Positions 18,813 to 64,000 of a stretch of DNA of 64,000 nt are shown here, piece by piece (within the stretch, counting starts at the first letter, position 1; every line of letters starts with the position of its first letter). The stretch comes from Acidobacteriota bacterium. Its GTDB lineage: Bacteria; Acidobacteriota; Vicinamibacteria; Vicinamibacterales; CAVVIG01. The translations under genes and the position numbers were made by a program. The stretch lies in the NCBI GenBank assembly GCA_028876655.1, contig JAGWRA010000280.1, positions 1,556 to 65,555 on the forward strand, written 5' to 3'. The notes below the pieces were generated by a model. That model had not been told where the DNA came from, made no database searches, and worked only from the letters and a program-made list of their open reading frames with translations.

Positions 18813-19148
18813 ATGCCAGACAAGGCTGACGTTCTGTACGGCACGCTGGCGCTGATGATTCTCAGGACGCTCGACGTGCTTGGCCCACTCCATGGGTACG
18901 CACTAGCGCGCCGGATTGAGCAGATCAGCCACGACCAGCTGTCTCTGAATCAGGGAACGCTCTATCCCGCGCTGACGAAACTGCAGCAACTGGGGTTGAT
19001 TGCGGGCAAGTGGGGCGAGTCCGAAACTGGGCGTCGTGCGAAGTTCTACACGATCACCCGTGCCGGTCGTAAGCAGCTGCAGGCCGAGCTCGAGAACTGG
19101 TCTCGTGCGTCCGGCATCGTGGCGCGATTCATCGAGGATCTCTCCTGA
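18813..19148 (+). CDS. PadR-family transcriptional regulator
   Basis: LYGTLALMILRTLDVLGPLHGYALARRIE...QGTLYPALTKLQQLGLIAGKWGESETGRRAKFYTITRAGRKQL. Confidence 0.9.
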   Translation: MPDKADVLYGTLALMILRTLDVLGPLHGYALARRIEQISHDQLSLNQGTLYPALTKLQQLGLIAGKWGESETGRRAKFYTITRAGRKQLQAELENWSRASGIVARFIEDLS

Positions 19149-24116: not shown

Positions 24117-24853
24117 CGCCGGGCGTGAAATACGGCACGATCCTGACGAAATGCAGCCCGGAGCCCGTTTCTTCCAGTTGCCCAGTGCTTGAGGGCGCGG
24201 CCAGCGCGGTACACGGGGCCGGGGACCGCGGTGGAGGTCCGGATATCCGCGAATCCGACGCTTCTCAGCAGCCCGTGCATCGCAGGAACATTAGGCGCCC
24301 ACCAGTTTGTCGGATCGTTGTTGAGTTCCGTGCTGGGATAAAACGCCGCGGCAGGCCGATGGATGCCCAACATATCCACTACGGTCTCGACGATGAGCAG
24401 ACCGCTCGTGACCGACGCGACTCGTTCGAGTGCCGCGAGCGGATCCCGGAGGTGGTACAGCACCCCGAGGAACAAAACGACGTCGAATGTGCCAACCCGC
24501 TCAGGGGACAACTCCATCACGTCGATGTCCATGTCTTCGACCCCGGACCGGAGGACACGTCTGGCCAGTTCAAATCCTTCCTTCGTACCCCAGCCCTCGC
24601 CGTGCCAGGAATACGAATCGGTGGCCAAGACCTTGGCTGCTCCGCGGCGCTCGGCCTCGAACGAGAAGAAGCCGTCCCACGCGCCGATGTCCAGGACCGT
24701 CAAGCCGGACAGGGACGCCGGAAGGCCCAAACGAGCAAGACGGTAGGGGCTATCCTCGATTCCCCGGGTCACGACGCCGTCACCCAGATCGATCGTGTGA
24801 AACCATCGAACTGCTTCGACGGCAGACTGGAGATCCGTGTCACTCGTTTCCAT
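24113..24853 (-). CDS. class I SAM-dependent methyltransferase (TIGR04290/DUF1698-like)
   Basis: VLDIGAWDGFFSFEAERRGAAKVLATD ... FDVVLFLGVLYHLRDPLAALERV. Start set at METSD (24853). Confidence 0.8.
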   Translation of the reverse strand: METSDTDLQSAVEAVRWFHTIDLGDGVVTRGIEDSPYRLARLGLPASLSGLTVLDIGAWDGFFSFEAERRGAAKVLATDSYSWHGEGWGTKEGFELARRVLRSGVEDMDIDVMELSPERVGTFDVVLFLGVLYHLRDPLAALERVASVTSGLLIVETVVDMLGIHRPAAAFYPSTELNNDPTNWWAPNVPAMHGLLRSVGFADIRTSTAVPGPVYRAGRALKHWATGRNGLRAAFRQDRAVFHARR

Positions 24854-24976
24854 TGGGCGTCCGCTTCGGCCTGTGGGCCCCAGTTCCGCTGACAGATGAG
24901 ACTCGAATAATAGCACCGTGTCTGGTCCGCGCAATGGCGGTCCACAGTTTCGAAGCTCGCACCCAGGTTGACCTGT

Positions 24977-26311: not shown

Positions 26312-26428
26312 GTGAACGCAGTATACTCGCCTGTGGGCGGGGTGGTCACCGAACCGGATCGTCCTGCGCCGGGCCGACGTTGATGCCGGTGCGAGGCCGC
26401 CCCGATAGCGGGCACAGGCGAAGAAGAC

Positions 26429-27280
26429 GTGTTCAACGCTACAAGAAAGCCCGCGCGCCCCATGTGGCGCCGAGTGGCCAGCCGCACTCGTCGGGCCGTC
26501 TACCGCCTGGCCACCCCACTGGACCGAGTGCTGCGCCGGTCGAAGGACCTGCTGCTACCGCCGGCGCATCTCCGCCTTTACTACTACAACAGCTTGGCCC
26601 CGGAGGCGTTTGCCCAAGCGTGCCGAAATACCCGGGCGGAATTGATGACTCGTGGTTTGCAGCCGCAGCATCGCGTTCTCGACATCGGATCCGGGATCGG
26701 GAATCTGGCCATCGGGTTGGTTGATTATCTGCAGGGCGGCTACGATGGCGTGGAGATCCACCCAGAGGCCGTGGCATGGTGCCAGCATCACATTACACCG
26801 CGCCACCGGGCGTTTCGCTTTCACCGAGCGGATGTCGAGAGCAGCGCCTACAATCCGAGTGGGCGTGGGTCGGCCACGATGTACCGCTTTCCATTCCCCG
26901 ATCGAGCTTTCGATTTCATCGTCCTCGCTTCAGTGTTCACGCACATGTTTCCTGAGCAGGTGGAGACATACCTTCAGGAGATTGCGAGGCTACTCGCGCC
27001 CGAGGGAAAGTGCCTGGCGAGCTTCTTTCTTCTGAACGATGAAACACGAGCCGGCGTCGAAGCGGGCCAGAGCTTTTTGTCGTTCCAAGTCAATCACGCT
27101 TCGGGATTGTGCCGACTGCACGATGCTGCGGTCCCAGAGGCCGCCGTCGCGATCGAAGAGCGGTTTGTGTTGGAATTGCTTGGCCGGACCGGTTTACGCA
27201 TTGCAGAGGCCCGCCGGGGTTCCTGGTGGCGTGGTACGGCGCACGACCAGGACCTGCTCACCATCGTGCTGAATTCCTGA
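26429..27280 (+). CDS. class I SAM-dependent methyltransferase
   Basis: RVLDIGSGIGNLAIGLVDYLQGGYDGVEIHPEAV ... FDFIVLASVFTHMFPEQVETYLQEIARLLAPEG. Confidence 0.8.
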   Translation: MFNATRKPARPMWRRVASRTRRAVYRLATPLDRVLRRSKDLLLPPAHLRLYYYNSLAPEAFAQACRNTRAELMTRGLQPQHRVLDIGSGIGNLAIGLVDYLQGGYDGVEIHPEAVAWCQHHITPRHRAFRFHRADVESSAYNPSGRGSATMYRFPFPDRAFDFIVLASVFTHMFPEQVETYLQEIARLLAPEGKCLASFFLLNDETRAGVEAGQSFLSFQVNHASGLCRLHDAAVPEAAVAIEERFVLELLGRTGLRIAEARRGSWWRGTAHDQDLLTIVLNS

Positions 27281-29281: not shown

Positions 29282-30793
29282 TTAGTTGTCTGGGCGCTGA
29301 CTGCCGTTCATCGGCCTGTCGGGCTCCTGTTCCATCGCGGTCACGGCCTGATCGATTAGAGCAACGGCTTCACGCTCACGTTGCAGATACGAGTAGGGCG
29401 AGAGTCGGATCCGTGGCGTTGCTGAACCGCGAGTCCACTCCACCGCGGCACGTTCCGCGCCGCTTCCCCGTCGCCGATTGAGAGGAAGACCGCTGCTCAG
29501 TCGCATGGAAAATAGGTCAAAATAGCGCCTTGCCGCAATCCCTACGAATGGGTTGAACTGCACCTTCTCGCACGCCTGAGGATTGTCAACCGCTATGCTG
29601 TCGTCGTGAAGTTCAAGGGCCCGACTCTTCGGATACGGTTCGACGTAAACCACTCTTGTGATTCCTGCTGCGACAATGTGCTTGGCGCAGTTGTGGCAGG
29701 GAAACGTCGTTGTGAACAGCGTCCCGTCTTTGACGCGGGTTCCCGAACGAGCACACGAAAGCAGGGCTTCCATTTCCGCATGAACTGAGCGCCCGAACTC
29801 GGTGAGGTCAGCGATTCTACTGTCAACAAGACACGCGCGTGCGTCCTCCGCTGTTCCTTCGGCCAAGCAGCCTGAAATTCTGGTGACGACATCCTCGATC
29901 ATTTCCGAGACGACTCTGTCGTTGGCATCAAATCCCCGAACGTGATCCCGCTGGTCGTTAGGGCCCGGCCAGTACAGGCCGCCACGGAATTTGGGGACGT
30001 CGTTCGCACCGGTCGCGATGACCTCGCCGTCTGCGGAAACCACAACTGCACCGACCTGTCGCGCCAGCTGAGCAGACCTGAGCGAGGCTGCATAGGCCAG
30101 GAACATCGAGTGCTCATCTTGGGTCGGCGTATAGAAGGGATTGCCGAATACGAGGTCAATGAATCGTGAGAGCTCGTCGTCTTTGCCTTCAGTTACAAAC
30201 ACGTCCGCCAAAGTGAAGGTGTCTCGGGTGTGCTGGCCGAGGGCGTCGTCAGCTTCGTCCTGGTCGCGCTCGAGGAGCTTCTTCGCTTGCTCCTCGCTAA
30301 CGCCCTTTCGTTGCATCAGGTAAGCAAGACGCTTGCTCGCTGGAGAGTAGACGCCTATGAGGAAGAAGCCGGTGCCGTAGACCCTGCGCAGAGTCTCAAC
30401 TTCTTCTGGGTGTTTGAGGCTGCGGAGCAGGTGGACGACACGCTCTTGTGGCGCGACGTCTTCACCACGTCGCTCGCTGATGGCCGATATCGCGTGGAGC
30501 GCGAGGATGTCGCCGCGCCCGGCTTGGTTTCTGAGTTTGTTGCCGAGACTCATCCTTGAATTGACGCGTTCGAACTCAGTGGCGCTGTTGATGACGACGC
30601 CGAGTTGTTCTGTGTGGAGCCGCTCCGCCAAACCGCTCAACTTGATGACGTTTGTGTCGTAGCCAAACTGTTTCAGGAAATCTGTGACCGTGGCTTGAAC
30701 CCGGTCGAAATCCGTGCCGGTCGGCGCGACCAACGCAAAGATGAGCTCGCCCTGAGGCAGCGTGACGACCTCGGCGAGCGTTCTCCCGGACAT
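29282..30793 (-). CDS. anti-phage dCTP/deoxycytidylate deaminase, AvcD-like (N-terminal NTPase/kinase-like + C-terminal CDA domain)
   Basis: C-terminal zinc-deaminase motifs HAEMEAL ... FPCHNCAKHIVAAGITRVVYVEPYPKS. The N-terminal ~200 aa (ELIFALVAPTGTDFDRV...) occupies the place of the P-loop-like domain. 503 aa from ATG 30793. Confidence 0.8.
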   Translation of the reverse strand: MSGRTLAEVVTLPQGELIFALVAPTGTDFDRVQATVTDFLKQFGYDTNVIKLSGLAERLHTEQLGVVINSATEFERVNSRMSLGNKLRNQAGRGDILALHAISAISERRGEDVAPQERVVHLLRSLKHPEEVETLRRVYGTGFFLIGVYSPASKRLAYLMQRKGVSEEQAKKLLERDQDEADDALGQHTRDTFTLADVFVTEGKDDELSRFIDLVFGNPFYTPTQDEHSMFLAYAASLRSAQLARQVGAVVVSADGEVIATGANDVPKFRGGLYWPGPNDQRDHVRGFDANDRVVSEMIEDVVTRISGCLAEGTAEDARACLVDSRIADLTEFGRSVHAEMEALLSCARSGTRVKDGTLFTTTFPCHNCAKHIVAAGITRVVYVEPYPKSRALELHDDSIAVDNPQACEKVQFNPFVGIAARRYFDLFSMRLSSGLPLNRRRGSGAERAAVEWTRGSATPRIRLSPYSYLQREREAVALIDQAVTAMEQEPDRPMNGSQRPDN

Positions 30794-30823
30794 GGCAGAA
30801 ATTGTAGGGATCCTCTTCGTTGG

Positions 30824-30872
30824 TTGACACACATTTCTGCGTCAGATATCATCAGATATCATTCGATATCTA
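30824..30872 (+). promoter_or_regulatory. sigma70-like promoter overlapped by three tandem 10-bp repeats with GATATC cores (candidate RHH operator)
   Basis: TTGACA (30824-30829), a 17-nt spacer, then TATCAT (30847-30852). Repeats are CAGATATCAT (30843-30852), CAGATATCAT (30853-30862) and TCGATATCTA (30863-30872). An AGGAGA RBS follows. Confidence 0.5.
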
Positions 30873-31471: not shown

Positions 31472-32536
31472 TCATTTGCCCCTCCAGGTCTTCCTAACCG
31501 CAGCGTCAAGCTGCCGTTGCCGTTCCTTCACCCACGGCGAGTAGTGCTTGAGCACGATCGCCGGCGTGTTGCCAAGAAGAACCGCGACGTTCTCGACTGA
31601 GACGCCCCGCACGAGCAGGGACACAGCAAACGAGTCGCGGAACCGGTGGAAGTGCGCGTGCTCGACCTCGGCGAGCTTCGCGAGCAGGCCGAAGCTGCGA
31701 CGGACGTCCTCGATGGCGGATTTCGGCTTGGCATCGCCCGACCAGAACAAGTGGGGCTTGCCCGGCAGCTTCCGCAGCGCGGTCGTGACCTTCTTCGGCA
31801 ACGGCACGGAGACTGGGACGCCCGTCTTCTGGGTGTACAGAAATACCTTGTCGCCGACCAGGCGATCCCTGGTCAGAGCCACGGCGTCGGAAATGCGCAG
31901 GCCGGAGTGCCGCAGGAGCAGGACCAGCGCATAGAGACGGTCGCCGTTGCCTTTGAAGCGCTTGCAGGCGTCGAGGAGCCTCTTGATCTCGGCCTCGGAG
32001 AACGGCAGGGTCGGCTTGGGGGCCAGCCTGGGCGGCTTCAGGGCTCTGGCTGGATTCGAGACGATCCAGCCGGCGTCGGCGGCGAACCGGAAGAAAGCGC
32101 GCAAGGCCTCGAGCGTCTTGGCCTTCGTGGTCGGCGCATACGTCCAGGACTCGCGGAATTCGCGCAGCGCCTGCACGTCGAGCTGCCTCAACCGCCGCCG
32201 GCCGGTCTTCTCGCACCACGGCAGCAGCTGCCCGCGCAGGAACAGGCGGTACTTCTTGAGCGACGGCTCCTTCAGATCACGCGCTTCGCAGTCGGCTAGG
32301 TAGCGGTCGATCGCCTCGGGCAGCGTCGGGGCTTGAGCACGAATGACGCCGATTTCACCGGAGGCCTCCCAGCCCCGGACGATGTCCTGGGCTGCGTCCC
32401 AGGAGCGGAGTCCGAGCGATTTCTTGACCCACTCGCCCCGGAGTGTCCCCTGGACCCACAGCGGACAGTTGCAGCGGCGGTAGCGGCGGGATCGGTGCGT
32501 GCAGGGCGGGTAATGCCTCCGGTAGATCTGGAGCAT
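31472..32536 (-). CDS. tyrosine-type site-specific integrase
   Basis: SAM-like N-terminal domain and a catalytic C-terminus (LLLRHSGLRISDAV ... HRFRDSFAVSLL ... LLGNTPAIVLKHYSPW). Immediately adjacent to the tRNA-Ser 3' end. Confidence 0.9.
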   Translation of the reverse strand: MLQIYRRHYPPCTHRSRRYRRCNCPLWVQGTLRGEWVKKSLGLRSWDAAQDIVRGWEASGEIGVIRAQAPTLPEAIDRYLADCEARDLKEPSLKKYRLFLRGQLLPWCEKTGRRRLRQLDVQALREFRESWTYAPTTKAKTLEALRAFFRFAADAGWIVSNPARALKPPRLAPKPTLPFSEAEIKRLLDACKRFKGNGDRLYALVLLLRHSGLRISDAVALTRDRLVGDKVFLYTQKTGVPVSVPLPKKVTTALRKLPGKPHLFWSGDAKPKSAIEDVRRSFGLLAKLAEVEHAHFHRFRDSFAVSLLVRGVSVENVAVLLGNTPAIVLKHYSPWVKERQRQLDAAVRKTWRGK

Positions 32537-32621
32537 GCTCCATCGTCTCACCAGAGGGACGAAATTGGAACGATTGACTATTGATGAGCAGAAATAGTCA
32601 ATTAAATCAGGGCTGAATTAG

Positions 32622-32711
<90 letters not shown>

Positions 32712-45479: not shown

Positions 45480-47963
<2,484 letters not shown>

Positions 47964-47979
47964 GGGTGAACTGGGTCGG

Positions 47980-48007
47980 CTACGAGCTACGGACTACAGG
48001 CTACGGG
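47980..48007. repeat. 4 x 7-nt tandem repeat CTACRRG
   Basis: CTACGAG CTACGGA CTACAGG CTACGGG in the gyrB-gyrA intergenic region. Confidence 0.5.
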
Positions 48008-48068
48008 GTTGCCGGGTGCGGGGCGCAGCGCGGGGCTCCGGAGCCTGAAGCCCGGAGCCTGTCGCCCG

Positions 48069-52057
<3,989 letters not shown>

Positions 52058-52058
<1 letters not shown>

Positions 52059-53416
52059 CACCGGAAAGCCTCCAGGAACGTCGCGATCTGGGTGTTGAAA
52101 TCTCCGTCCGACCGGCGCAGCTCCTCCACCTTCCGGATGGAATGGATGACCGTCGAATGGTGCTTGCCGCCGAAGCTGCGGCCGATCTCCGGCAGTGACG
52201 CCCGCGTGAGCATCTTGCAGAGGTACATCGCAATCTGCCGCGGCATGGCCACCGACTTCGAGTTGTTGCGCGACTTCAGGTCGGCCAGCTTCAGCTGGTA
52301 GTAGTCGGCCACGTATTTCTGGATGATCTCGATCGTGACGGCGCGCTCGTCGTGGTCCAGGATGTTCTTCAGGACCTCCTGGGCGAGCGGCAGCGACAAC
52401 TCGCGCCCCGTGAGCGAGGCGTACGCCACCAGGCGGATGAGCGAGCCCTCGAGCTCGCGGATGTTCGACTTGATCTTCCCGGCGATGTAGATCGCGACGT
52501 TGTCGGGGAGCGGGACGGCCTCCGCCTCGGCCTTTTTCTTGAGGATGGCGACCTTCGTCTCGAGATCCGGCGGCTGGATGTCGGCAATCAGGCCCCATTC
52601 GAAGCGCGATCGCAGGCGCTCCTCGAGCGAAGGGATCTCGTGCGGCGGGCAGTCGCTGCTGAGGACGATCTGCTTCTGCGCCTCGTGCAGGGCGTTGAAC
52701 GTGTGGAAGAACTCGGTCTGCGTCCCTTCCTTGCCGGCCAGGAACTGGATGTCGTCCACGAGCAACACGTCCACGGTGCGATAGCGCTCGCGGAAGTCGA
52801 TGATGTGGTCGTACCGCAGTGCGTTGATCATCTCGTTCATGAAGCGCTCGGACGAGATGTACGTGAGCTTCAGGTGCGGGTCGTGCTCGAGCACGTAGTG
52901 GCCGACGGCGTGCATCAGGTGCGTCTTGCCGAGCCCCACACCGCCGTAGATGAACAGCGGGTTGTAGGAGCGGGACGGCGCCTCGGCAACCGCACGGCAT
53001 GCGGCGTGCGCGAACTGGTTCGACGACCCGACGATGAAGGTGTCGAAGGTGTAGCGGGGGTTGAGGCCCCCGAGACCCGACCCGCCGGCCGCCGCCGGCA
53101 GCGGATCCAGCGGGGGAGGCTCGGGTGCCGGCTGGGGATCCTGCAATTCGACGGGTGCCGGCACCGGCGTCGCGGCACCCCCGGTGACGAACACCACCGT
53201 GACGCCCGTGCGACGGACGTCACCCAGCGCCTCGTTGATGACCGCGGAGTAGTGCTTGGTGAGCCAGTCCTTGAACAGCGGGTTCGGCACGCGCACCGTG
53301 AGCGTGTCGCCGGTCTCTCCGACGAAGCTGGTCGGCTTGAACCAGGTGTAGAAGCTGTGCCGGTTCACCTTACTCTCGATCCGCGCGAGCACGTCGTCCC
53401 AGATGTTTCCCGTCAT
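52058..53416 (-). CDS. dnaA: chromosomal replication initiator protein DnaA
   Basis: MTGNIWDDVLARIESKVNRHSFYTWFKPT..., AAA+ core (NPLFIYGGVGLGKTHLMHAVG), C-terminal DNA-binding domain (GGKHHSTVIHSIRKV). Start at ATG 53416; the upstream ORF extension is rejected. Confidence 0.95.
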
Positions 53417-53641
53417 AGCGCCTGCGCCCGATCCATCCGCGCCGCACCCGGCAGAACGAGGCCGAAATCCGGATGAAAAATGCCTGTTACACGACTTTCG
53501 CCCATGAACGGTCTCATAAGCCCGGGAAACTCGCGGGTGAGCCGTCGGGAAGCGTTCAGTGATGGGCATTCCGGACTTTCGCCCGCGCTCAAATCCTTGG
53601 TTTTCGGCCCTCTTGGCTGATGCGTGGCTGAAGAAGCCCGA

Positions 53642-53673
53642 ATTTCCACAGTTTTTTCCACAGGTGTGGAAAA
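53642..53673. promoter_or_regulatory. cluster of three DnaA boxes
   Basis: ATTTCCACA (53642-53650), TTTTCCACA (53654-53662) and inverted TGTGGAAAA (53665-53673). They match TTWTNCACA with 1, 0 and 0 mismatches. Confidence 0.65.
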
Positions 53674-53921
53674 CTCTGGGAAGAGACCGAATATTGTGTC
53701 CATATGCGGGATGGCCGGGGAGGCGGAAGAGGGCGAATGTAGCACAGAGCTGCCCGGGACTGCCAGAGCCTTCAACTGTCTGGTGCAGCGGGCGGATATT
53801 TGCACCCGGATCGATTGACAGTCCCCAGAGGGCTCCGCTACCATTGATGGTTCTTGACTTTGCGATGGCTCCAGACGGCGCCGAGAAGCGCCCGGAACAC
53901 AAGCGTTCATAAGGGTTTCCG

Positions 53922-54074
53922 ATGAAGGGTAAGCGCACATATCAGCCCAACAACCGCCGTCGCCATCGGGCTCACGGCTTCCTGGTCCGGATGCAGACGA
54001 AGAACGGCCGTCTGGTGCTGAAGCGGCGCCGGGCCAAGGGCCGCAAGCGTCTGACCGTCAGCGACGAGGGCTGA
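53922..54074 (+). CDS. rpmH: 50S ribosomal protein L34
   Basis: Not in the ORF track (<60 aa). ATG 53922 translates to [50 protein letters not shown], with stop at 54072-54074. Confidence 0.9.
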
Positions 54075-54138
54075 AGCGGTCGCCCCAGAGCCGGGCTCGA
54101 GGGCGGCCGGGCCGGACGCGTGCCGCAGGGGGCAGATC

Positions 54139-54489
54139 ATGGCCGAACCCAGGGCCGCGACCCGTATCCGTCGTCGCGCTGAATTCCAGCGCGTCTACGA
54201 GAGCGGCACCCGGAGTCACGGGCGGTTCAGCACCGTCTTCTTCCTGCCGAACACCCTCGGCGTCACGCGTCTCGGCATCGCCGCCACGCGCAAGCTGGGC
54301 GGGGCAGTGCAGCGCAACCGGGCCAAGCGGCTGGTGCGCGAGCTCTTCAGGCGTCATCCGGCCACGGCGGGCTTCGATATCGTGGTCATTCCCAGGCTCG
54401 AGCTGCTGAAGGCGAGTTTTGCCAGCCTTGAAGCCGACTACCGATCCCACCTCGACCGCGCCCTCCGCCGCCGGCGGGCCGCCCGCTGA
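54139..54489 (+). CDS. rnpA: ribonuclease P protein component
   Basis: [30 protein letters not shown] ... [23 protein letters not shown]. Confidence 0.9.
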
Positions 54490-54760
54490 TCCCGGGCTGC
54501 CGGCGCGTCTCGTGCTGGTTGCGCTCAGAGGCTACAAGATCCTGATTTCTCCGTTGTTTACGGGTTCCTGCCGGTACGTGCCTTCCTGCTCGACCTATAC
54601 GGCAGAGGCGGTCCGGCGGTACGGCGCCCTCCGGGGAGGGTGGCTGGGGCTGAAACGGCTCAGTCGTTGTCATCCGTTCGGTGCGTCCGGCTACGACCCG
54701 GTGCCGGAACCCGACGTTATCCGGTCGACAGCGACCACCACCACCACCCGCACGGTCTGA
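54419..54760 (+). CDS. yidD: membrane protein insertion efficiency factor YidD
   Basis: [64 protein letters not shown]. There is no in-frame ATG; the true start is probably internal (e.g. GTG 54512) rather than 54419. Confidence 0.75.
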
Positions 54761-54769
54761 TCGCGCCCC

Positions 54770-56539
54770 ATGGAGAAGAGAGTCCTCCTCGCCATCTTCT
54801 TGTCGTTCCTGGTCTTGTACGCCTTTCAGGGTTTGTTCGAGACCCCGAAACCGAAGCCGAAGACCACTCCAGCGGCGGCCGGAAAGGCCGTGCCGGGGAA
54901 GACGGCCGTTACTGGCATCCCCGCGGCGCAGGCTGGGAAAACTGCCGGGTCTACGGCGCGGGAGGCCGCGCAGCAGGCCCCGGCGGCCGGGTCCACCGCG
55001 TTGGTCTCGGCCAGTCAGGCCGAAGACATCCGGGTGGAAACCGATGCGGTCGAGGCGGTCTTCACGAACAAGGGCGGCGAACTGAAGAGCTGGAAGCTCA
55101 AGCACTACAAGGACCGCGAGGGCAAGCCGCTCGAGCTGGTCGTCACGCAGGTGATGGACCGCTATCCGTATCCCTTCTCACTGAAGGTGGCCGATCCCGC
55201 CGTTACCGCCCAGTTGAACGAGGCGCTCTACGCCGTGCAGGGCGGATCGGCCGGGACGGTCATCGACGGCCGCACCCATCCGGTCACCGTGTCCTTCGAA
55301 TACCGGGACGCGAGCGGTCTCAGCGTCCGGAAGCAGTTCACCCTGCAGCCGAACTCTTACGTGGTGGGCTTCCAGGCGACCGTCAGCCGCGCCGGACAGG
55401 TGATGAACCCGGCCGTCGAGTGGGGGCCGGGCCTCGGGGACATGTGGAACAGCGAGACCAGCCGCTACGTGCAGAAGCCGGAGGGGATCCTGTTCCACGC
55501 CGGCACCGAGAAGGTGGAGCGGCTCTCGGCGAAGGATCTCTCGAAGCAGGCCGGCTACGAGGGGACCTACGGCTACGCCGGGGTGGACGACAACTACTTC
55601 ATGTCGGCGCTGCTGTTCCCCGGCCGCATCCAGGTGCAGTACGAACCGCTGGCGATTCCCGAGTCGTCGGCGCCGAAGGCCCCGGTGCAGGACCTGGTGG
55701 CCTATCAGGTGCAGCCCGAGCAGCCCGATCAGGCGCTGAAGGTGTTCTTCGGTCCGAAGGACTTCGACGTGCTGGCGGGCATCGACCGCAACCTGGTCCG
55801 GGCGATCAACTTCGGCTGGTTCTCGTTCCTGGTGGTGCCGCTGCTGCGCGCCCTGAAGTGGCTGAACGGCTACATCCACAACTACGGCTGGTCGATCATC
55901 GCGCTGACCGTGCTCATCAACCTGGCGATCTTCCCGCTGCGCCACAAGAGCGTGGTGTCGATGCGGAAGATGCAGGAGATCCAGCCCGAGATCAAGGCGA
56001 TCCAGGCGCGCTACGCGAAGTTCAAGGCCACCGACCCCGCCCGGCAGAAGATGAACGTGGAGATGATGGATCTCTACCGGCAGAAGGGGGTCAACCCGGC
56101 CAGCGGCTGCCTGCCGATGATCCTGACGCTGCCGGTGCTCTACGCGATCTACTCTCTGCTCGAGACGGCGATCGAGATCCGCGGGGCGCCGTTCATCTTC
56201 TGGATCAAGGATCTCTCGCTGCACGACCCGCTGTACATCACGCCGATCCTGATGGGGATCTCCATGATGGTGCAGCAGAAGATGACGCCGAGCACGGCCG
56301 ACCCGACGCAGCAGAAGATCATGCTGGTCATGCCGATCGTGTTCACGGTGATGTTCCTCTGGGCACCGAGCGGGCTGGTGCTGTACTGGCTGGTCAGCAA
56401 CGTGTGGGCGATCGGGCAGCAGTACGTCACAAACTCTCTCATCGGCCCCCCGGTGGTGAAGGCGGTGCGGCCGCCGGCCGAGCGCCGCGTGAAGAAGGTG
56501 GGCTCGGGCAAGACGGACGCCGCGGCGGGCGGGAACTAG
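54770..56539 (+). CDS. yidC: membrane protein insertase YidC
   Basis: 589 aa with a periplasmic N-terminal domain and the conserved C-terminal core (GWSIIALTVLINLAIFPL...MQEIQPEIKAIQARY...GCLPMILTLPVLYAIY). Confidence 0.95.
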   Translation: MEKRVLLAIFLSFLVLYAFQGLFETPKPKPKTTPAAAGKAVPGKTAVTGIPAAQAGKTAGSTAREAAQQAPAAGSTALVSASQAEDIRVETDAVEAVFTNKGGELKSWKLKHYKDREGKPLELVVTQVMDRYPYPFSLKVADPAVTAQLNEALYAVQGGSAGTVIDGRTHPVTVSFEYRDASGLSVRKQFTLQPNSYVVGFQATVSRAGQVMNPAVEWGPGLGDMWNSETSRYVQKPEGILFHAGTEKVERLSAKDLSKQAGYEGTYGYAGVDDNYFMSALLFPGRIQVQYEPLAIPESSAPKAPVQDLVAYQVQPEQPDQALKVFFGPKDFDVLAGIDRNLVRAINFGWFSFLVVPLLRALKWLNGYIHNYGWSIIALTVLINLAIFPLRHKSVVSMRKMQEIQPEIKAIQARYAKFKATDPARQKMNVEMMDLYRQKGVNPASGCLPMILTLPVLYAIYSLLETAIEIRGAPFIFWIKDLSLHDPLYITPILMGISMMVQQKMTPSTADPTQQKIMLVMPIVFTVMFLWAPSGLVLYWLVSNVWAIGQQYVTNSLIGPPVVKAVRPPAERRVKKVGSGKTDAAAGGN

Positions 56540-56571
56540 ACGGCTGCGACTCGAGGCCCCCGGAGTGATGA

Positions 56572-57024
56572 ATGACGACCGAAGCGACAGACGAGATCGT
56601 CGAGTTCCTGACCCGGGTCACGACGGCGATGGGACTGTCGGCGACGACGACCATCGAGGCGACGGAGACCGGGCCGCGCATCAACATCGGGGGTGAAGGT
56701 GCCGAGCTGCTGCTGTGGCACCGCGGGGAAGCCCTGCGCGCGCTGCAGCACATGGTCGACATGGTGTTCGGCCGTCAACTGGCCGACGACGAGCGCGTCT
56801 TCCTCGACTGCCTGGAGTACCGCAAGGGGAAGGATCTCGAACTGAAGCAGATGGCGAGGTTCCTGGCGCAGAAGGCGAAGGACACCGGCCTCGATCAGGA
56901 GCTCGGGCCCCTGAACCCGTACGAACGCCGCCTGGTGCACATGTCAGCCGCCGAAGTGCCCGGCGTGACGACCGAGAGCGTCGGCGACGCGCACCTGAAG
57001 AAGGTCATCATTTCGGGGAAGTAG
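56572..57024 (+). CDS. jag: Jag/KhpB-like RNA-binding protein (KH + R3H domains)
   Basis: Position after yidC, plus an R3H-like LNPYERRLVHMSAAEVPGVTTESVGD. Confidence 0.8.
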   Translation: MTTEATDEIVEFLTRVTTAMGLSATTTIEATETGPRINIGGEGAELLLWHRGEALRALQHMVDMVFGRQLADDERVFLDCLEYRKGKDLELKQMARFLAQKAKDTGLDQELGPLNPYERRLVHMSAAEVPGVTTESVGDAHLKKVIISGK

Positions 57025-57138
57025 GGCGGCCCGGCACGGGTCGACGGCGAAGGCCGCTGTCCGAGGTCGCGCGCTCTTCTTGCCCAGGAACGCGGCAACA
57101 CCGCCCGTCGCAGGATCCGGAGCGTAAGCGACTGGCGA

Positions 57139-57166
57139 GCGCGGGGTGGGGCCCCGCGCCGTTGAA
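57139..57166 (+). repeat. intergenic repeat element, partial copy (hairpin part)
   Basis: GCGCGGGGTGGGGCCCCGCGCCGTTGAAG matches the hairpin + TGAAG part of the 35120/63177 element. Ends 3 nt before the mnmE ATG. Confidence 0.5.
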
Positions 57167-57168
57167 GC

Positions 57169-58599
57169 ATGTTCTCCACGGCCGACACGATCGTGGCGAT
57201 TGCGACGCCGGCGGGGCGAGGCGGCCTCGGCGTGGTGCGCATCAGCGGCGCCGCGGCGCAGGCGATCGCGCAGTCGCTGCTCGGGCGTTCGGCGCCGCTC
57301 CAGCCCCGCCGGGCGAGCTTCGGGCGGGTCCGCGCAGCCGTTCCGCCAGGAATCGCCTCCGCGTCCGCTGCCTCTCCGGATTCCCCTTCCACCGGCACCT
57401 GCGCAATCGATCAGGTCGTCGCCACCTTCTTCCCGGCCCCGCGCTCGTACACCGGCGAGGACACGGTCGAGATCGCGGCACACGGCAGCCCCGTGGTGCT
57501 GGACGCGATCGTCGATGCGGCGATGACCGCGGGCGGACGCCTCGCGGAGCCCGGCGAGTTCACGCTGCGGGCGTTCCTCAACGGCCGGATCGATCTGGTG
57601 CAGGCGGAGGCCGTGGCAGACCTGATCGACGCCGTGACACCGCTGCAGGCACGGGCCGCGTGCGACCAGCTCGACGGGACGCTGACCGGAGCGATTGTGG
57701 AGATCGAGCGCGGGCTCTTCGAGCTGATCGCGCGGCTCGAGGCCTCGATCGACTTCCCCGAGGAGGGCTATCACTTCATCGAGGCGGCGCAGGTGCGGAT
57801 GGAGACGACCGCGATTGCTGCGCGGATCGGTGCGCTGCTGGCGGGCGGCCGCGGCGGGCGGCTGCTGCGCGAGGGGGCGCGGGTCGCGATCGTGGGAAAG
57901 CCGAACGTGGGGAAGTCCAGCCTGTTCAATTTCCTGGTGGGAACGGGACGGGCCATCGTGGCGGCGGAGCCGGGGACGACACGGGATCTGGTCAGCGAGA
58001 CAGTCGACCTCGGCGGGCTGAAGGTGACCCTGGTGGACACGGCGGGCGTGCGTGAAACGAGCGATGCAGTGGAGGCGGAGGGCGTCGGCCGCGCGCGCGA
58101 GGCGGCCGCGGCGGCGGACCTGCAGCTGGTCGTGCTGGATCGGTCGCGGACGCTGGATGTGGATGATGCACGGGTGATGGAGGGGGCGACGGTCGGGCGG
58201 ACGCTGTTGGTGGTCAACAAGACAGACGCGGCCGACGCATGGACGGGGCAGGGATCGGACAGGCTGTGTGCGGGAGCGCCACGGCTCGACGTTTCGCTGA
58301 AGAGCGGCGCCGGGTGCGGGCAGCTCGCCTCGGCGGTGATCGAGGCGCTCGGGGTGGAACTGACGCCGCGCGACAGCGCCGCCATCACGAACCGGCGGCA
58401 GATCGGGCTGCTGGAGAATGCGGCCGTGGCACTGCAGCGGGCCGTCGACGGACTGGATGGCGCAGGCGGGCCGGTGCCCGAAGAGTTCGTGCTGCAGGAT
58501 CTGCACGCGGCGCGTGAGGCGCTCGAAGAGGTCAGGGGACGCCGGGCTCCGGACGAGGTGCTGCAGGAGATCTTCAGGCGCTTCTGCATCGGAAAGTAG
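57169..58599 (+). CDS. mnmE: tRNA uridine-5-carboxymethylaminomethyl(34) synthesis GTPase MnmE
   Basis: DTIVAIATPAGRGGLGVVRISG, G domain (IVGKPNVGKSSLFN ... DTAGVRE ... NKTD), C-terminal FCIGK. Confidence 0.95.
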   Translation: MFSTADTIVAIATPAGRGGLGVVRISGAAAQAIAQSLLGRSAPLQPRRASFGRVRAAVPPGIASASAASPDSPSTGTCAIDQVVATFFPAPRSYTGEDTVEIAAHGSPVVLDAIVDAAMTAGGRLAEPGEFTLRAFLNGRIDLVQAEAVADLIDAVTPLQARAACDQLDGTLTGAIVEIERGLFELIARLEASIDFPEEGYHFIEAAQVRMETTAIAARIGALLAGGRGGRLLREGARVAIVGKPNVGKSSLFNFLVGTGRAIVAAEPGTTRDLVSETVDLGGLKVTLVDTAGVRETSDAVEAEGVGRAREAAAAADLQLVVLDRSRTLDVDDARVMEGATVGRTLLVVNKTDAADAWTGQGSDRLCAGAPRLDVSLKSGAGCGQLASAVIEALGVELTPRDSAAITNRRQIGLLENAAVALQRAVDGLDGAGGPVPEEFVLQDLHAAREALEEVRGRRAPDEVLQEIFRRFCIGK

Positions 58600-58608
58600 G
58601 CGAAGAGG

Positions 58609-60482
58609 ATGGAACAGGACGCCGACGTGATCGTGATTGGGGCGGGCCATGCCGGGTGCGAGGCGGCGTGGAGTGCCGCGCGCATGGGGTGCCGGGTGGC
58701 GCTGTGCACGCTGGCGCCCGACACGGTCGCGCACATGCCGTGCAATCCGGCGATCGGCGGGACCGCCAAGGGACATCTGGTGCGCGAGATCGACGCCCTG
58801 GGCGGCCTCATGGGTGAAGCGATCGACGGCACGGGAATCCAGTTCAAGCTGCTCAACCGGAGCCGCGGCCCGGCAGTCTGGTCACCGCGCGCGCAGGCCG
58901 ACAAGCGGACGTACGGACAGTGGGTGCGCAGCCGGCTCGAGAGCGAGGCGAATATCCGCTGGGTCTTTGGGACGGCCGAGCGGTTGATGGTGGAGGGCGG
59001 GCAAGTAACCGGCATAGAGCTTTTTGATGGGCAACAACTGAAGGCGCCGGCGGTGGTCGTGACGACGGGGACCTTTCTGAATGGGTTGATTCACATCGGG
59101 CAGGAGCGGCGGCCGGCTGGCCGTGTTGGCGAGCCGCCGTCGGTGGGGCTGGCGCTATCGTTGAAGTCGTTCGGCTTCCGGTGGGGGCGGTTGAAGACAG
59201 GGACGCCGCCGCGGCTTGCCAAGCGGAGCATCGATTTCGCACGGGCCGTGCGGATGGGGCTCTTTGTCGAGGAGCGGGGAGACAGCGAACCGGTCGCCTT
59301 CTCGTTCCGGTCCGACAGGATCAACCGGCCTCAGATCGACTGCCACCTGCTTTATACCAACGAGCGGGTGGCCAGGCTGGTGCGGGAGAACGTGTCGGCG
59401 TCACCGCTGTTCAACGGGCAGATTCAGGGGATTGGGCCGCGTTACTGCCCGTCGCTGGAAGACAAGATCGTCCGGTTTCCGGATCGGGAGCGCCACCAGG
59501 TCTTCCTCGAGCCGGAAGGGATCGAGAGCGAGGAGATCTACGTCAACGGCTGCTCGATGAGCCTGCCGCGCGGTCTGCAGGAGGAGATCATCAGGAGCCT
59601 GCCGGGCCTCGAGGACGCGGAGATGCTCCGGCCGGGTTATGCGGTCGAGTACGACTTCATCCAACCGACCGAGTTGCGGCGGACGCTCGAGACTCGGCGG
59701 GTCGAAGGACTGTTCCTGGCGGGCCAGGTGAACGGGACCTCGGGTTACGAGGAGGCGGCGGCGCAGGGTCTCGTCGCTGGGATGAACGCAGCCTTGAAGG
59801 TGAGCGGTGGGGGGACGTTCATCCTGGGGCGGCACGAGGCCTACATCGGAATCCTGGTCGACGACCTCGTTACCAAGGGATGTCTGGAGCCGTACCGCAT
59901 GTTCACCTCGCGCGCAGAACATCGTCTCCTCCTGCGGATCGACAATGCCGACCTTCGGCTGACGCCGCGAGGCCGTGAGGCCGGACTCGTGGACGACGAG
60001 CGCTGGGAACGGTTTGAGGCGAGGCGTGGGCGCTTCGAAAGAAACCGGAAGGCCATAGCCGAGACGACGGTTGCGGTATCGACCGGGGAGCGGATGCCGG
60101 CGGCCAGGCTCTGAGGCAGCCCGAGGTGAAGTTGGCCGAGCTGCATCGAAACAGCCAAGTGCTGCTCGAGCTTGGCTGTGGGATGGAGGCACTCGATATC
60201 GCCAGCGTTGAAACCGAGATCAAGTACGAGGGGTATCTGCGGCGTCAGATGGCGACTGTCGAGCGGCTCCAGCGCGACGAGAGGCGGGAGATCCCGGAGG
60301 ATTTTGTCTTTGAGGGTGTACCCGGACTGTCACGGGAGGCGGTGCAGCGGCTCAGCGAGGCGCGGCCGGAGACGCTCGGTCAGGCGCTGCGGATTCCGGG
60401 ACTGACGCCGGCGGCGGTAGCGCTCATCGGTGCGAGGCTGAGACGGCCGGCGGCCGCCGGCGGGCCGACGGCTGCCGGGTAA
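58609..60482 (+). pseudogene. mnmG: tRNA uridine 5-carboxymethylaminomethyl modification enzyme MnmG, split by an apparent 1-nt deletion
   Basis: Residues 1-501 ([22 protein letters not shown]...) end at TGA 60112-60114. The conserved C-terminal domain ([12 protein letters not shown]...EIKYEGYLRRQ...GQALRIPGLTPAAV) continues in the -1 frame (ORF 60126..60482). Restoring one C after GCC (60103-60105) gives ...[15 protein letters not shown]... Confidence 0.85.
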
Positions 60483-60488
60483 CGGCTG

Positions 60489-61148
60489 ATGACCTCACGA
60501 GAATTCCGGACGCGGCTCCTCAAACGGGCAGGCAAGGTCGAGCTCGCCGTGACAGACGTCGTCATCGAGGGGCTCGAGGCGTACTACCGGCTGCTCGCCA
60601 GGTGGAATCAGAAGATCAACCTGACATCTCTGCCGTTGGCGGAACTCTCGGACGAGACGGTGGATCGGTTACTGATCGAGCCACTGGCTGCGGCGCGGCA
60701 TGTCCGTCCGGAGGCTCGTTCCGTCATCGACATCGGCTCCGGAGGTGGTTCACCGGCGCTTCCGCTGAAGGTGGCGCTGCCGTCTCTGAGGCTCTCGATG
60801 GTTGAGGTGAAGGTGCGGAAATGCGCCTTCCTTCGAGAGGCGGTGCGGACGCTGGCTCTGGAAGGGGCAGAGGTGGAGAATGCCCGTTTCGAGGAGTTGC
60901 TGACCCGGCCGGAATTGCACGAGGCGTTCGACCTCCAGACCATGCGAGCCGTCCGGGTCGAGGGGCGCACGCTGAGAACCGTTCAGGCGTTCGTTCGTCC
61001 TGGAGGGCAAGTCTTTCTTTTCCGCGGACCGTCCGGTGAACTGCCTGAGCCGCTCGCACCCCTGGTCTGGCGAAGCACCGAACCCCTCGTTCCGTCCCTT
61101 CGGAGCCGTCTCGTCATCCTCGAAAAGGCGTCCGTTCCAGGTCGTTAA
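60489..61148 (+). CDS. rsmG: 16S rRNA (guanine527-N7)-methyltransferase RsmG
   Basis: YYRLLARWNQKINLTSL ... VIDIGSGGGSPALPLKV. Confidence 0.9.
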   Translation: MTSREFRTRLLKRAGKVELAVTDVVIEGLEAYYRLLARWNQKINLTSLPLAELSDETVDRLLIEPLAAARHVRPEARSVIDIGSGGGSPALPLKVALPSLRLSMVEVKVRKCAFLREAVRTLALEGAEVENARFEELLTRPELHEAFDLQTMRAVRVEGRTLRTVQAFVRPGGQVFLFRGPSGELPEPLAPLVWRSTEPLVPSLRSRLVILEKASVPGR

Positions 61149-61178
61149 GTGCTGCCAGGCGACCTGCCCTCCTAGGTT

Positions 61179-61194
61179 TGTTCCACGTGGAACA
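61179..61194. promoter_or_regulatory. parS site (perfect 16-bp palindrome)
   Basis: TGTTCCACGTGGAACA, versus the canonical parS TGTTNCACGTGAAACA. Confidence 0.8.
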
Positions 61195-61316
61195 CTGTGC
61201 ATACCCGAAGCCTCGCCGTCTCTACCTCCGTGCGACCTCAGCCAGGTGATAGCCGCGATGCGTCGGCAAGATGCTAAGTCTTAATTTTCAAAGGCTTACA
61301 ATCAGAGCAGCTGCTG

Positions 61317-61332
61317 TGTTCCACGTGGAACG
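61317..61332. promoter_or_regulatory. parS site (15/16 palindrome)
   Basis: TGTTCCACGTGGAACG, 116 nt upstream of parA. Confidence 0.75.
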
Positions 61333-61447
61333 ACTAGCCTAGCCTGAGGCCCAAGAAAGGCCGCGTGAATAGGGACGGTCTCGGTTACAATGTGCCAGAC
61401 AAGTCAAATAGACCCAGGCAGACATTGTTTCTGTCGAAAGACCTAAA

Positions 61448-62242
61448 ATGGGCCGCATCATCGCGATCGCCAACCAGAAAGGCGGGGTCGGCAAGACGAC
61501 CACGGCCATCAACCTGCCAGCCGCCCTCGCGCTCGCCGGCCTGCGGGTGCTGATGGTCGACATGGACCCGCAGGCGAACCTCACCAGCGGCGTCGGTTTG
61601 AAGAACCAGGCGACCGCGAGCGGCACCATCTACAGCGCCCTCACGACACCCGAGCCGCTCACCGATCTCGAGCCCTTCATCCTCACGACCCGGATCGACA
61701 ACCTGCACCTCGTGCCGGCCGATGCGCATCTGACGGGCGCCGAGATCGAACTGGTCACGCTGCCGCAGCGCGAGGAACGGCTGCGCCTGCTCCTGCACCC
61801 GCTGCGCGATCGCTACGACCGCATCTTCATCGACTGTCCGCCCTCGCTCGGGCTGCTCACGTTGAACGGTCTCGTGGCGGCCGATGCCGTGCTCATTCCG
61901 CTCCCGTGCGAGTACTTCGCGCTCGAGGGGCTCGCCGATCTCGTGAGCACGATGCGCCGCGTGCGCGGGGCCCTCAATGCCGGGCTCGACATCGAAGGCG
62001 TGCTGCTGACGATGTACGACGAGCGGACGAACCTGGGCCAGCAGGTCGCGCGGGACGTGCGGGCGTTCTTCGAAGGCAAGGTGTTCGAGACGGTGATCCC
62101 GCGGAACGTCCGGCTCGGGGAAGCCCCCAGCCACGGCCTGCCCATCGTCCTCTACGATCAGAAGTCGCGCGGCGCGGCCGCCTACATGTCGCTCGCGCGC
62201 GAGCTGCTCACGCGCGACGGCCAGGCGTCCGTTCCGGCGTGA
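61448..62242 (+). CDS. parA: chromosome partitioning ATPase ParA/Soj
   Basis: [23 protein letters not shown] (deviant Walker A) and overall ParA pattern. Confidence 0.95.
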
Positions 62243-62273
62243 TCGGCGACCGATTCGACGGAGAACCGCAGCC

Positions 62274-63137
62274 ATGGACAAACGCCCAGCCCTCGGCAAG
62301 GGCCTGAGCGCGCTCATTCCCGACGCGCCGGCCCCGACACCCGGACCGATTGAGGTCGACATCGACCTGCTCTCGCCCAATCGCTACCAGCCGCGCGCGC
62401 GCGTCGACGAAACGGCGCTCGCCGAGCTCGCCGAATCGATCAAGGCGAACGGCATCATCCAGCCGATCGTGGTCCGCCGCGCCGGGCAGCGATACGAGAT
62501 CATCGCCGGCGAGCGCCGGTGGCGGGCCGCCCAACGCGCCGGCCTCCATCGGGTGCCGGTGGCGATCCGCCAGGTCGCCGACGGCGAAGAACGCTCGCTG
62601 CTCGAGATGGCGCTCGTCGAGAACGTGCAGCGCGCCGACTTGAATCCCATTGAGGAGGCAGAGGCGTACCGCCGGATGACCGATGAGTTCCACCGCACGC
62701 AGGAGGAAGTGGCGGCGGCCGTCGGGAAGGATCGCGCGTCGGTCGCCAACTACCTGCGCCTGCTGAAGCTGCCCGAGGAGCTGCGCGCCGAAATCGCGGG
62801 CGGGCGGCTGTCCATGGGCCACGCCCGGGCGCTGCTCGGCCTGGCGGACGCGGCCGCACAGCGGAACCTGTCGCGCGACGTCCTTGCGCGCGGCCTGTCG
62901 GTGCGCGACACGGAAGCCCTGGTCCGGAAACTCGCCGGTGGCGGGAAGCCGCCGGCGCCGGCCCCGAAGAAGACCGACGTGCACACGCGCGCGGCCGAAG
63001 AGCAGCTGCGCCTGACTCTCGGCACGGCGGTGCGGATCGTCCGCCGGGGAAAGAAGGGCCGGATCGAGATCGATTTCGGATCGGAAGACGAGCTGATCCG
63101 GATCTACGATCAGTTGACGGACGGAACCTCGCGTTGA
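62274..63137 (+). CDS. parB: chromosome partitioning protein ParB/Spo0J
   Basis: LGKGLSALI ... QPIVVRRAGQRYEIIAGERRWRAAQRAGL ... LNPIEEAEAYRRM. Confidence 0.95.
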   Translation: MDKRPALGKGLSALIPDAPAPTPGPIEVDIDLLSPNRYQPRARVDETALAELAESIKANGIIQPIVVRRAGQRYEIIAGERRWRAAQRAGLHRVPVAIRQVADGEERSLLEMALVENVQRADLNPIEEAEAYRRMTDEFHRTQEEVAAAVGKDRASVANYLRLLKLPEELRAEIAGGRLSMGHARALLGLADAAAQRNLSRDVLARGLSVRDTEALVRKLAGGGKPPAPAPKKTDVHTRAAEEQLRLTLGTAVRIVRRGKKGRIEIDFGSEDELIRIYDQLTDGTSR

Positions 63138-63176
63138 GGTCGCGAGCGATCGAAGAGAGCTTCGCCGAAGGCCCTG

Positions 63177-63257
63177 CCGAGCCGAGGACCTGTGAATCCG
63201 AGGCGAGGCATCGGCGTCAGGTCCGCGCGGGGGTGGGGCCCCGCGCGAATTGAAGAA
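63177..63257 (+). repeat. intergenic repeat element, copy 2 (full length)
   Basis: CCGAGCCGAGGACCTGTGAATCCGAGGCGAGGCATCGGCGTCAGGTCCGCGCGGGGGTGGGGCCCCGCGCGAATTGAAGAA. Contains a 9-bp-stem hairpin CGCGCGGGG/CCCCGCGCG. Confidence 0.7.
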
Positions 63258-63270
63258 ACACGAGATCGAC

Positions 63271-64000
63271 ATGCAGAAGCGCCTGACCGAAATGGTCGCC
63301 TGCGCCGGTTGAGCGAGCAAACTCGCCGCTGGCGAGCTCGCTCAGGTTCTGAGCGACATCCCCGTGCAGTCCGACCCGCGGATCCTGATCGACTTCAGGA
63401 CCCACGACGATGCGGGTGTGTACGCCTGGGAGGCCGGCCCGGCGCTCGTGCAGACCGTCGATTTCTTCACCCCGATCGTCGACGACCCCTACCAGTACGG
63501 CCAGATCGCCGCGGCCAACGCCCTCAGCGACGTCTACGCGATGGGCGGCCGACCGGTTACAGCCCTGGCGATTGCCGGCTTCCCGGACGGGGGGCTCGAC
63601 GAGCCGACCATCAAGGCGATCTTCCGTGGCGGCTTCGACAAACTGCGCGAGGCGGGCGCCGTCCTGCTCGGAGGCCACACAGTCCGGGACCGGGAGATCA
63701 AGTTCGGCTACGCCGTCACCGGCGCGGTCGATCCGGCACGGATGCTGTCGAACGCCGGCGCCCGGCCCGGCGACCGGCTGTTCCTGACCAAGCCGATCGG
63801 CACCGGCATCATCGGCACGGCGATCAAGTTCGACCGGGCCCCGGACATCCTGGTGCGCCAGGCGGTGGCGTCGATGTGCACCCTGAACCGGGCGGCGGGC
63901 GAGGTGGCGGCGGCGGCCGCCGGCACCGCGGTGCGGGCGTGCACCGATGTCACCGGCTTCGGCCTGGCGGGACATGCGACCGAGCTGGCGGTGGCGAGCC
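63271..64000 (+). CDS. selD: selenide, water dikinase SelD with in-frame UGA (selenocysteine) at codon 14; 3' end beyond the window
   Basis: ATG 63271 gives MQKRLTEMVACAG-TGA-ASKLAAGELAQVLSDIP...VDFFTPIVDDPYQYGQIAAANALSDVYAMGGRP... U-A-S-K aligns with C-G-C-K of the E. coli SelD active site. The ORF track misses the gene because of the TGA at 63310-63312. Confidence 0.85.
63311..63343 (+). promoter_or_regulatory. candidate bacterial SECIS stem-loop
   Basis: Directly after and overlapping the UGA. Outer stem GAGCGAG (63311-63317) / CTCGCTC (63337-63343), 4-nt bulge CAAA, inner stem CTCGCC (63322-63327) / GGCGAG (63331-63336), loop GCT. Confidence 0.45.

Follow-up and report, generated by a model that had tools for sequence, protein, structure and literature searches.

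A predicted selenocysteine-type selD gene with two adjacent, selected hairpins downstream of its in-frame UGA codon in a Vicinamibacterales-like acidobacterium

The window analysed here (the whole stretch of DNA, 64,000 nucleotides) ends within a selD gene that carries an in-frame UGA at codon 14. Our reading, to which we assign a probability of roughly 0.88, is that the gene codes for a Sec-type SelD whose UGA is read as selenocysteine (Sec), that the recoding signal consists of two neighbouring hairpins, H1 and H2, and that H2 is the one bound by SelB. A Sec-type selD is a well-known kind of bacterial selenoprotein gene, and finding one here is no surprise biologically, as SelD ranks second among prokaryotic selenoprotein families in how widespread it is (PMC13188914). 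As of 2006, four selenoproteins belonging to three selenoprotein families were counted for the Acidobacteria (PMC1794560). The coordinates of the features discussed below are collected in Table 1.

Table 1. Features of the selD locus at the end of the window; hairpin positions in parentheses are numbered with the U of the UGA as +1.
Feature	Position	Strand	Basis
selD (selenide, water dikinase / selenophosphate synthetase), 5' part	63271..64000	+	TIGR00476, Pfam and PDB matches; synteny
In-frame UGA at codon 14, predicted to encode Sec at the catalytic Sec/Cys position	63310..63312	+	Alignment to Cys17 of E. coli SelD; 161 loci
Lys17 codon (AAA), matching Lys20 of the N-terminal catalytic loop of E. 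coli SelD	63319..63321	+	Alignment to 3u0o and 2yye
5' arm of the proposed outer stem, UGAGCGAG, pairing with 63337-63344	63310..63317	+	Thermodynamically possible; encloses H1, sequesters the UGA, excludes H2
Hairpin H1, CUCGCC-GCU-GGCGAG, 6 bp, 3-nt loop	63322..63336 (+13..+27)	+	Pairing in 37 sequences; frozen third positions
Hairpin H2, UCGCUCAG-GUU-CUGAGCGA, 8 bp, apical G-GUN-C	63338..63356 (+29..+47)	+	Covariation; link to Sec; bSECIS criteria

The selD frame opens at an ATG (63271-63273), reads MQKRLTEMVACAG*ASKLAAGELAQVL... with the TGA (63310-63312) at the asterisk, continues on through VDFFTPIVDDPYQYGQIAAANALSDVYAMGG and stays open as far as position 64000, where the window end cuts the gene after ~243 of its ~345 codons (~70% of the gene). 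The nearest in-frame stop on the 5' side ends at 63195, and in-frame starts ahead of the TGA are found at 63250 (TTG), 63271 (ATG) and 63292 (ATG). The first in-frame start past the TGA is a GTG at codon 32, and a protein begun there would have lost the catalytic loop of SelD. Translated with C in place of the U, the product reaches 299.2 bits against the NCBIfam equivalog model TIGR00476 (cutoff, 125 bits) over residues 4-243, a match that spans the TGA and bears out the claim, made earlier from the letters and their translations, that a SelD with an in-frame UGA at codon 14 lies here. Two other SelD equivalog models, NF002098 and NF010705, give scores under their cutoffs, as expected for a truncated sequence. 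No plus-strand ORF is listed at selD, since the frame is broken by the TGA and the gene continues past the window end; the sequence-only reading had likewise held the UGA responsible for hiding the gene.

Both AIRS (PF00586) and AIRS_C (PF02769) domains were found in the product by Pfam, and its best PDB matches are the SelD enzymes of Aquifex aeolicus (2yye/2zod, 6e-56) and E. coli (3u0o, 1e-50). Residue 14 aligns with Cys17 of the E. coli enzyme, within AGCGCK, and with the Cys of the A. aeolicus enzyme, within SGCAAK. Three residues further on, K17 aligns with E. coli Lys20, and this lysine is invariant in the clade of the window gene. These alignments agree with the earlier proposal that U-A-S-K corresponds to the C-G-C-K loop of E. 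coli SelD. We take the residues that match E. coli Cys17 and Lys20 to be the catalytic ones.

Known SelD proteins of both types resemble the window product closely. Cys-type SelD, as in E. coli (3u0o), has the same fold, the same AIRS and AIRS_C domains and the same loop, with Cys17/Lys20 in the places of U14/K17; it differs in having TGC or TGT for the TGA and in lacking a SECIS, and the three Cys-type genes of the clade are without H2. Sec-type SelD/SPS2, as in A. aeolicus and Desulfomonile tiedjei, belongs to the same family, TIGR00476, with a UGA at the same catalytic position, and likewise combines an N-terminal glycine-rich loop, a Lys three residues on, and a SECIS within the coding sequence just 3' of the UGA; gene callers truncate or miss these genes as well. 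The A. aeolicus structures (2yye/2zod) were solved with Cys at the Sec position. In D. tiedjei selD the opal codon is codon 15 (PMC5389517).

UGA ends 23 of the 48 called genes in the window and is the commonest stop codon there, so the genetic code is standard and reassignment of UGA (code 4 or 25) is ruled out. A scan for in-frame TGA codons with coding-like flanks returned one further candidate, at ~55017 and antisense to yidC, which was judged spurious.

The Sec position was then compared across 161 homologous selD loci drawn from genome and metagenome collections. The codon homologous to codon 14 is TGA at 116 loci, TGC at 37 and TGT at 8. The TGA-type loci are independent assemblies from several phyla, and TGA alternates only with Cys codons; an alignment of Sec- and Cys-type orthologs, which the sequence-only reading had suggested as a check, thus divides the loci into 116 with TGA and 45 with TGC or TGT. 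That reading had also named orthologs with their true start downstream of the TGA as evidence that would count against it. The peptide 5' of codon 14, RLTEMV(A/S)C(A/S)G, is instead conserved in frame with variable third positions, and the 10-13 codons ahead of the TGA show this same combination of protein-level conservation and third-position variation. The peptide on the 3' side (ASKLAAGELAQVL) is likewise conserved, with synonymous variation. Database proteins of the relatives are mostly 318-323 aa long and start with MLSDIP 3' of the TGA; they are truncated gene calls without the catalytic loop.

The Gly codon immediately before the UGA (63307-63309) was also followed in alignment A1, an ungapped alignment of the 37 Sec-type sequences of the clade. 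It is GGU in 37 of 37 sequences (columns 7-9) and varies among GGN in other Sec-type clades. The invariant GGU may point to an influence of codon context on the recoding of UGA or on termination efficiency.

The closest relatives of the selD locus are two metagenome contigs (L001 and L002) that are 86-87% identical and carry TGA at the homologous codon, and the nearest named genomes are Vicinamibacterales/Acidobacteriota MAGs. Relatives that share the parB-selD-atp arrangement are 85-87% identical. In the window as in both contigs, the genes are ordered rpmH-rnpA-yidC-jag-mnmE-mnmG-rsmG-parA-parB-selD-atp operon, so that in these closest relatives, too, selD comes straight after parB and is followed by the ATP synthase operon. 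The gene lies in the chromosomal replication-origin region (window 45480-63137), where dnaA (52058-53938), dnaN, gyrB and gyrA on the minus strand face the plus-strand genes rnpA-yidC-jag-mnmE-mnmG-rsmG-parA-parB-selD, and where the GC skew rises sharply after ~56 kb. Within this region mnmG (gidA; 58609-60482, plus strand) is represented by two ORFs of 501 aa and 118 aa in different frames, with the break near 60112-60123. A tblastn comparison with the intact 606-aa orthologue of L002 places one frameshift at the junction, caused either by an indel in the assembly or by a genuine lesion. L001 and L002 show split genes of their own (mnmE, atpA and parB), which suggests long-read indel errors of that data type.

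Two hairpins lie side by side downstream of the UGA, H1 with its helix formed by +13..+18 and +22..+27 and H2 with its helix formed by +29..+36 and +40..+47. Across the 37 sequences of alignment A1, 97.3% of H1 cells are paired and the only changes are from G-C to G.U; H1 and H2 taken together are 97.1% paired. A hairpin at the H1 position is present in all Sec-type clades. The most informative single pair is +33/+43 of H2, which is U-A in 22 of the 37 sequences, C-G in 15 and broken in none. On a neighbour-joining tree built from the remainder of the selD gene, the switch between U-A and C-G represents at least three independent events among Sec-type genes. The switch ties a synonymous site in an Ala codon (GCU/GCC) to a Ser/Gly replacement (AGC/GGC) four codons on, a coupling that only an RNA pairing constraint, and not a protein constraint, explains.

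Selection on the two helices is also visible in codon usage. The third positions that fall in the stems of H1 and H2 have a mean entropy of 0.44 bits, as compared with 1.09 bits in comparable control codons further 3' (36 clade genes; Mann-Whitney p = 0.002). Leu +4 is CUC in 36 of 36 clade genes and Leu +9 in 35 of 36, whereas Leu codons elsewhere in these genes are divided almost equally between CUG (62) and CUC (54). The GAG codon of the H1 stem is fixed in all 36. The codons used for Gly +7 are confined to GGC and GGU, whose third bases can each pair with G16; in the rest of the genes, A or G is the last base of 28% of Gly codons. The most variable third positions are loop sites, namely +21 in H1 (1.86 bits) and +39 in H2 (1.57 bits). 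Because stem third positions are frozen while loop sites are free, both hairpins are selected as RNA.

The folding energy of H2 lies between -11.0 and -11.7 kcal/mol, varying with the end context. A single-sequence fold has a z-score of -1.74, with a minimum free energy (MFE) structure that mixes competing helices, and RNAalifold run on the clade recovers H2 and replaces H1 with a different, non-covarying 5' helix. Rfam has no match in the selD region at gathering thresholds, and a permissive Rfam scan of 63150-63500 gave chance-level matches only (E > 4).

The presence of H2 is linked to that of the Sec codon. The three Cys-type members of the clade (L012, L103 and L107), which have TGC in place of TGA, have only 3-4 of the 8 H2 pairs left. 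Two of these (L103 and L107) retain H1 (UUCGCC..GGCGAG) and have lost H2. These patterns are consistent with recent Sec-to-Cys conversions, with the distal hairpin decaying first. In the full comparison set, an H2-type hairpin occurs at 44 of the 116 Sec-type loci and at 1 of the 45 Cys-type loci.

Published rules for bacterial SECIS elements (bSECIS) call for an apical loop of 3-9 nt, an upper stem of 4-16 bp and a UGA-to-loop distance of 16-37 nt, with a G in the first two loop positions and a loop that mostly reads N1-G-[G/U]-N-N2, N1 and N2 being paired (PMC13188914). H2 agrees with all of these: its loop is 3 nt (5 nt with the closing G-C pair open), its stem 8 bp and its spacing 33 nt, and the loop G36-G37-U38-N39-C40 follows N1-G-U-N-N2, with G36:C40 paired in 33 of the 37 sequences. 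Like the elements behind the consensus (Zhang and Gladyshev, via PMC13188914), it is a stem-loop in the coding region 3' of the UGA. The window gene departs from that consensus in having two adjacent selected hairpins and not one extended stem-loop, and in placing the consensus-type loop, that of H2, close to the maximum spacing allowed. The loop size and 6-bp stem of H1 also fit the rules, but its GCN loop does so only loosely and its spacing of 15 nt is just outside the 16-37 nt range. From these sequence comparisons, the best-supported assignment is that H2 is the predicted SelB-binding SECIS core and that H1 is probably an accessory or spacer helix. Against H2 as the sole candidate core, H1 matches it in conservation and its loop opens with a G. 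H1 also occupies the place of the E. coli minimal SECIS, starting as that does 12 nt after the UGA. The conservation of H1 may come partly from the amino-acid sequence and codon bias, because H1 persists in two Cys-type relatives.

A gene of this type would depend on the Sec-decoding machinery. No tRNA-Sec (selC) was found by ARAGORN in the 64-kb window or in the flanks of 36 related loci, and neither selA nor selB was found in the 64-kb window (41 ORFs by Pfam, and the eight rnpA-parB genes by synteny with L001 and L002). It is reasonable to place selA, selB and selC elsewhere in the genome, since the UGA and its SECIS have been maintained long-term in dozens of lineages. The sole tRNA in the window, a tRNA-Ser with anticodon UGA (32622-32711), was considered as selC and rejected, as it is an ordinary serine tRNA.

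This tRNA-Ser gene lies at the end of an island (7300-32711) with 58-63% GC, as compared with 67-71% in its flanks, and resembles a mobile or defence island that has integrated. It contains a tyrosine integrase (31472-32551, minus strand), AlpA (16929-17351), two PadR regulators with a MacB/FtsX permease (18342-21802), three methyltransferases (24113-27280), an AbiEi/AbiEii toxin-antitoxin pair (12342-14614, plus strand) and several ORFs without a Pfam match, such as a 684-aa ORF at 22062-24116 (minus strand). A 595-aa reverse transcriptase (8203-9990, plus strand) matches the PADLOC model 'RT-Toprim_I-C' (single-gene retron type I-C) over its full length with 709 bits, and its neighbour (10224-11705, minus strand) has a pPIWI-associated-nuclease-like domain (PF18165). 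A 516-aa protein (29282-30832, minus strand) has a cytidine/dCMP deaminase domain and scores 546 bits against the PADLOC dCTP deaminase model PDLC02373.

The principal alternative concerns which structure serves as the SECIS. The sequence-only reading had proposed a two-part hairpin (63311-63343) that starts at the UGA. Such a hairpin exists in the sequence, with its start placed one base off, as the TGA begins at 63310: the arm at 63310-63317 can pair with CUCGCUCA (63337-63344) around H1, joining +1..+8 to +28..+35. If this single long hairpin (63310-63344) were the functional SECIS, the H1 loop would bind SelB and H2 would be incidental, an arrangement that we consider unlikely. In its favour, it is the MFE fold of the free window RNA, at -21.8 kcal/mol (free MFE -22.6) as compared with -21.0 kcal/mol for H1 plus H2, the two being nearly equal in stability; it resembles E. 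coli fdhF, in which the UGA is located in the lower SECIS stem, and the UGA of the window selD can enter a lower helix in free mRNA as it does there. The 12-nt distance from the UGA to H1, as in the E. coli minimal element, and the G that comes first in the H1 loop point the same way. The comparative data, however, do not support the outer stem. Its A(+3)/N(+33) pair is an A.C mismatch in 15 of the 37 clade sequences and is never compensated, its covariation scores equal those of shuffled controls, and in the C-G variants H1 plus H2 is favoured over it by 3-6 kcal/mol. When nucleotides 1-12 are blocked, modelling a ribosome with the UGA in its A site, H1 plus H2 becomes the MFE fold, its pairs having probabilities of 0.97-0.99. 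H1 has a GCN loop and not G[G/U], at 15 nt it falls short of the published spacing, and the covariation of H2, its frozen synonymous sites and its loss in Cys-type genes would all be left unexplained. By these energies the long hairpin may form in the free mRNA of U-A variants, the window's included; we infer that it must be melted once the UGA is in the ribosomal A site, and so cannot be the structure present at decoding. Of the earlier proposal the inner helix, H1, stands as a conserved element and the outer stem does not, and a pair of adjacent hairpins at 63322-63356 describes the recoding signal better.

Two other explanations give the UGA a different meaning. That it really terminates translation, or stems from a sequencing error or a pseudogene lesion, any functional product starting on its 3' side (MLSDIP..., 318-323 aa), strikes us as extremely improbable. 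UGA is the commonest stop of the window, automatic gene calls on the relatives do begin past the TGA, and the assembly has at least one frameshift (mnmG). Nonetheless, 116 independent assemblies, drawn from several phyla, have TGA at precisely this codon, and it alternates only with Cys; the 10-13 codons upstream are conserved as protein while their third positions vary; the TIGR00476 match begins at residue 4, ahead of the TGA; and a start at the GTG of codon 32 would drop the loop with the Cys17/Lys20 equivalents. We trust the TGA despite base errors in the assembly because dozens of independent assemblies confirm it. It is also very unlikely, in our estimate, that the UGA is recoded not, or not only, as Sec, with a UCA-anticodon suppressor tRNA inserting Cys or Ser and SelD being (partly) active. 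Candidates for such a suppressor would be a tRNA-Sec-mimicking tRNA-Cys or the acidobacterial 'allo-tRNAs'. The Cys-type SelD of E. coli is an active enzyme, and decoding by a suppressor would ease the need of a Sec-containing SelD for making Sec. Mukai et al. reported that a tRNA-Cys mimicking tRNA-Sec can decode the D. tiedjei selD opal codon, at the homologous place, as Cys, and that possible nonsense-suppressor allo-tRNAs occur in Acidobacteria (PMC5389517). The window, however, has no suppressor tRNA, its only tRNA being the normal tRNA-Ser(UGA). A TGC codon would be the simpler way to a Cys product, and the relatives that use Cys have lost H2. The strongly selected SECIS-like element, moreover, is a requirement of SelB-dependent decoding.

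Under the preferred reading, in which the UGA is decoded as Sec, the window would hold the 5' two-thirds of a Sec-type selD from an acidobacterium nearest to Vicinamibacterales MAGs. Translation would begin at the ATG at 63271, and the UGA at 63310 would not be taken as a stop: SelB carrying Sec-tRNA(Sec) would be recruited by the mRNA structure just 3' of it, and Sec would be placed at the catalytic position of the N-terminal loop, where U14-x-x-K17 corresponds to Cys17/Lys20 of E. coli. The predicted recoding signal would comprise the adjacent H1 (+13..+27) and H2 (+29..+47). The apical G-GUN-C loop of H2, which matches the consensus SelB-binding loop, would make H2 the SelB-binding core, and H1 would act as a compact spacer or accessory helix that holds H2 near the mRNA entry channel. 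While the mRNA is free, the H2 5' arm may pair with the UGA region instead, giving the long hairpin.

The position of the consensus loop distinguishes this Vicinamibacterales-like lineage of Acidobacteriota from most of the other Sec-type selD genes compared, in that the loop is distal (+29..+47), behind a proximal hairpin. Among 80 distant Sec-type genes, 69 have the consensus GG/GU loop in the proximal hairpin (CGGGU, GGA, GGU, GUUUG and others) without H2, 9 have H2 without a proximal GG/GU loop, 2 have neither and 0 have both. The nine carriers of H2 are found in Bacilli (L024, L044, L066 and L134), Clostridia (L063 and L064) and Planctomycetota (L080), together with L068 and L120. The mutual exclusion is strong by Fisher's test (p = 2e-10, a value not corrected for phylogeny) and suggests that the SelB-recognised loop may sit on either the proximal or the distal hairpin across SelD genes.

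A more tentative extension, possible but in our view doubtful as a whole, is that the SelD family has two interchangeable positions for the SelB loop and that the element is in addition a two-state one that tunes selD translation. Most lineages would then carry the GG/GU loop proximally (+13..+30), and this clade would carry it on the distal 'AQVL' hairpin (+29..+47), a location that would also apply to Sec-type Bacilli, Clostridia, a Planctomycetota MAG and others. Where the loop is distal, the proximal hairpin would stay as a folded spacer and bring the loop, in effect, closer to the ribosome. In U-A variants, that of the window among them, the distal 5' arm would be able to pair with the UGA and might thereby tune selD translation and the supply of Sec.

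A two-hairpin or distal SECIS in bacterial selD is not described in the papers searched, much of the relevant literature lying outside them, and the arrangement may perhaps be new to the literature. It could improve SECIS-based prediction of selenoproteins by adding a two-hairpin form with a distal consensus loop, and H2 offers a clean natural case of covariation for how SelB spacing rules differ among bacteria. Standard gene callers would miss or truncate selD here, as they have left the database entries of the relatives without the catalytic loop. Read correctly, the gene identifies a selenium-using organism in which UGA is very probably decoded as Sec.
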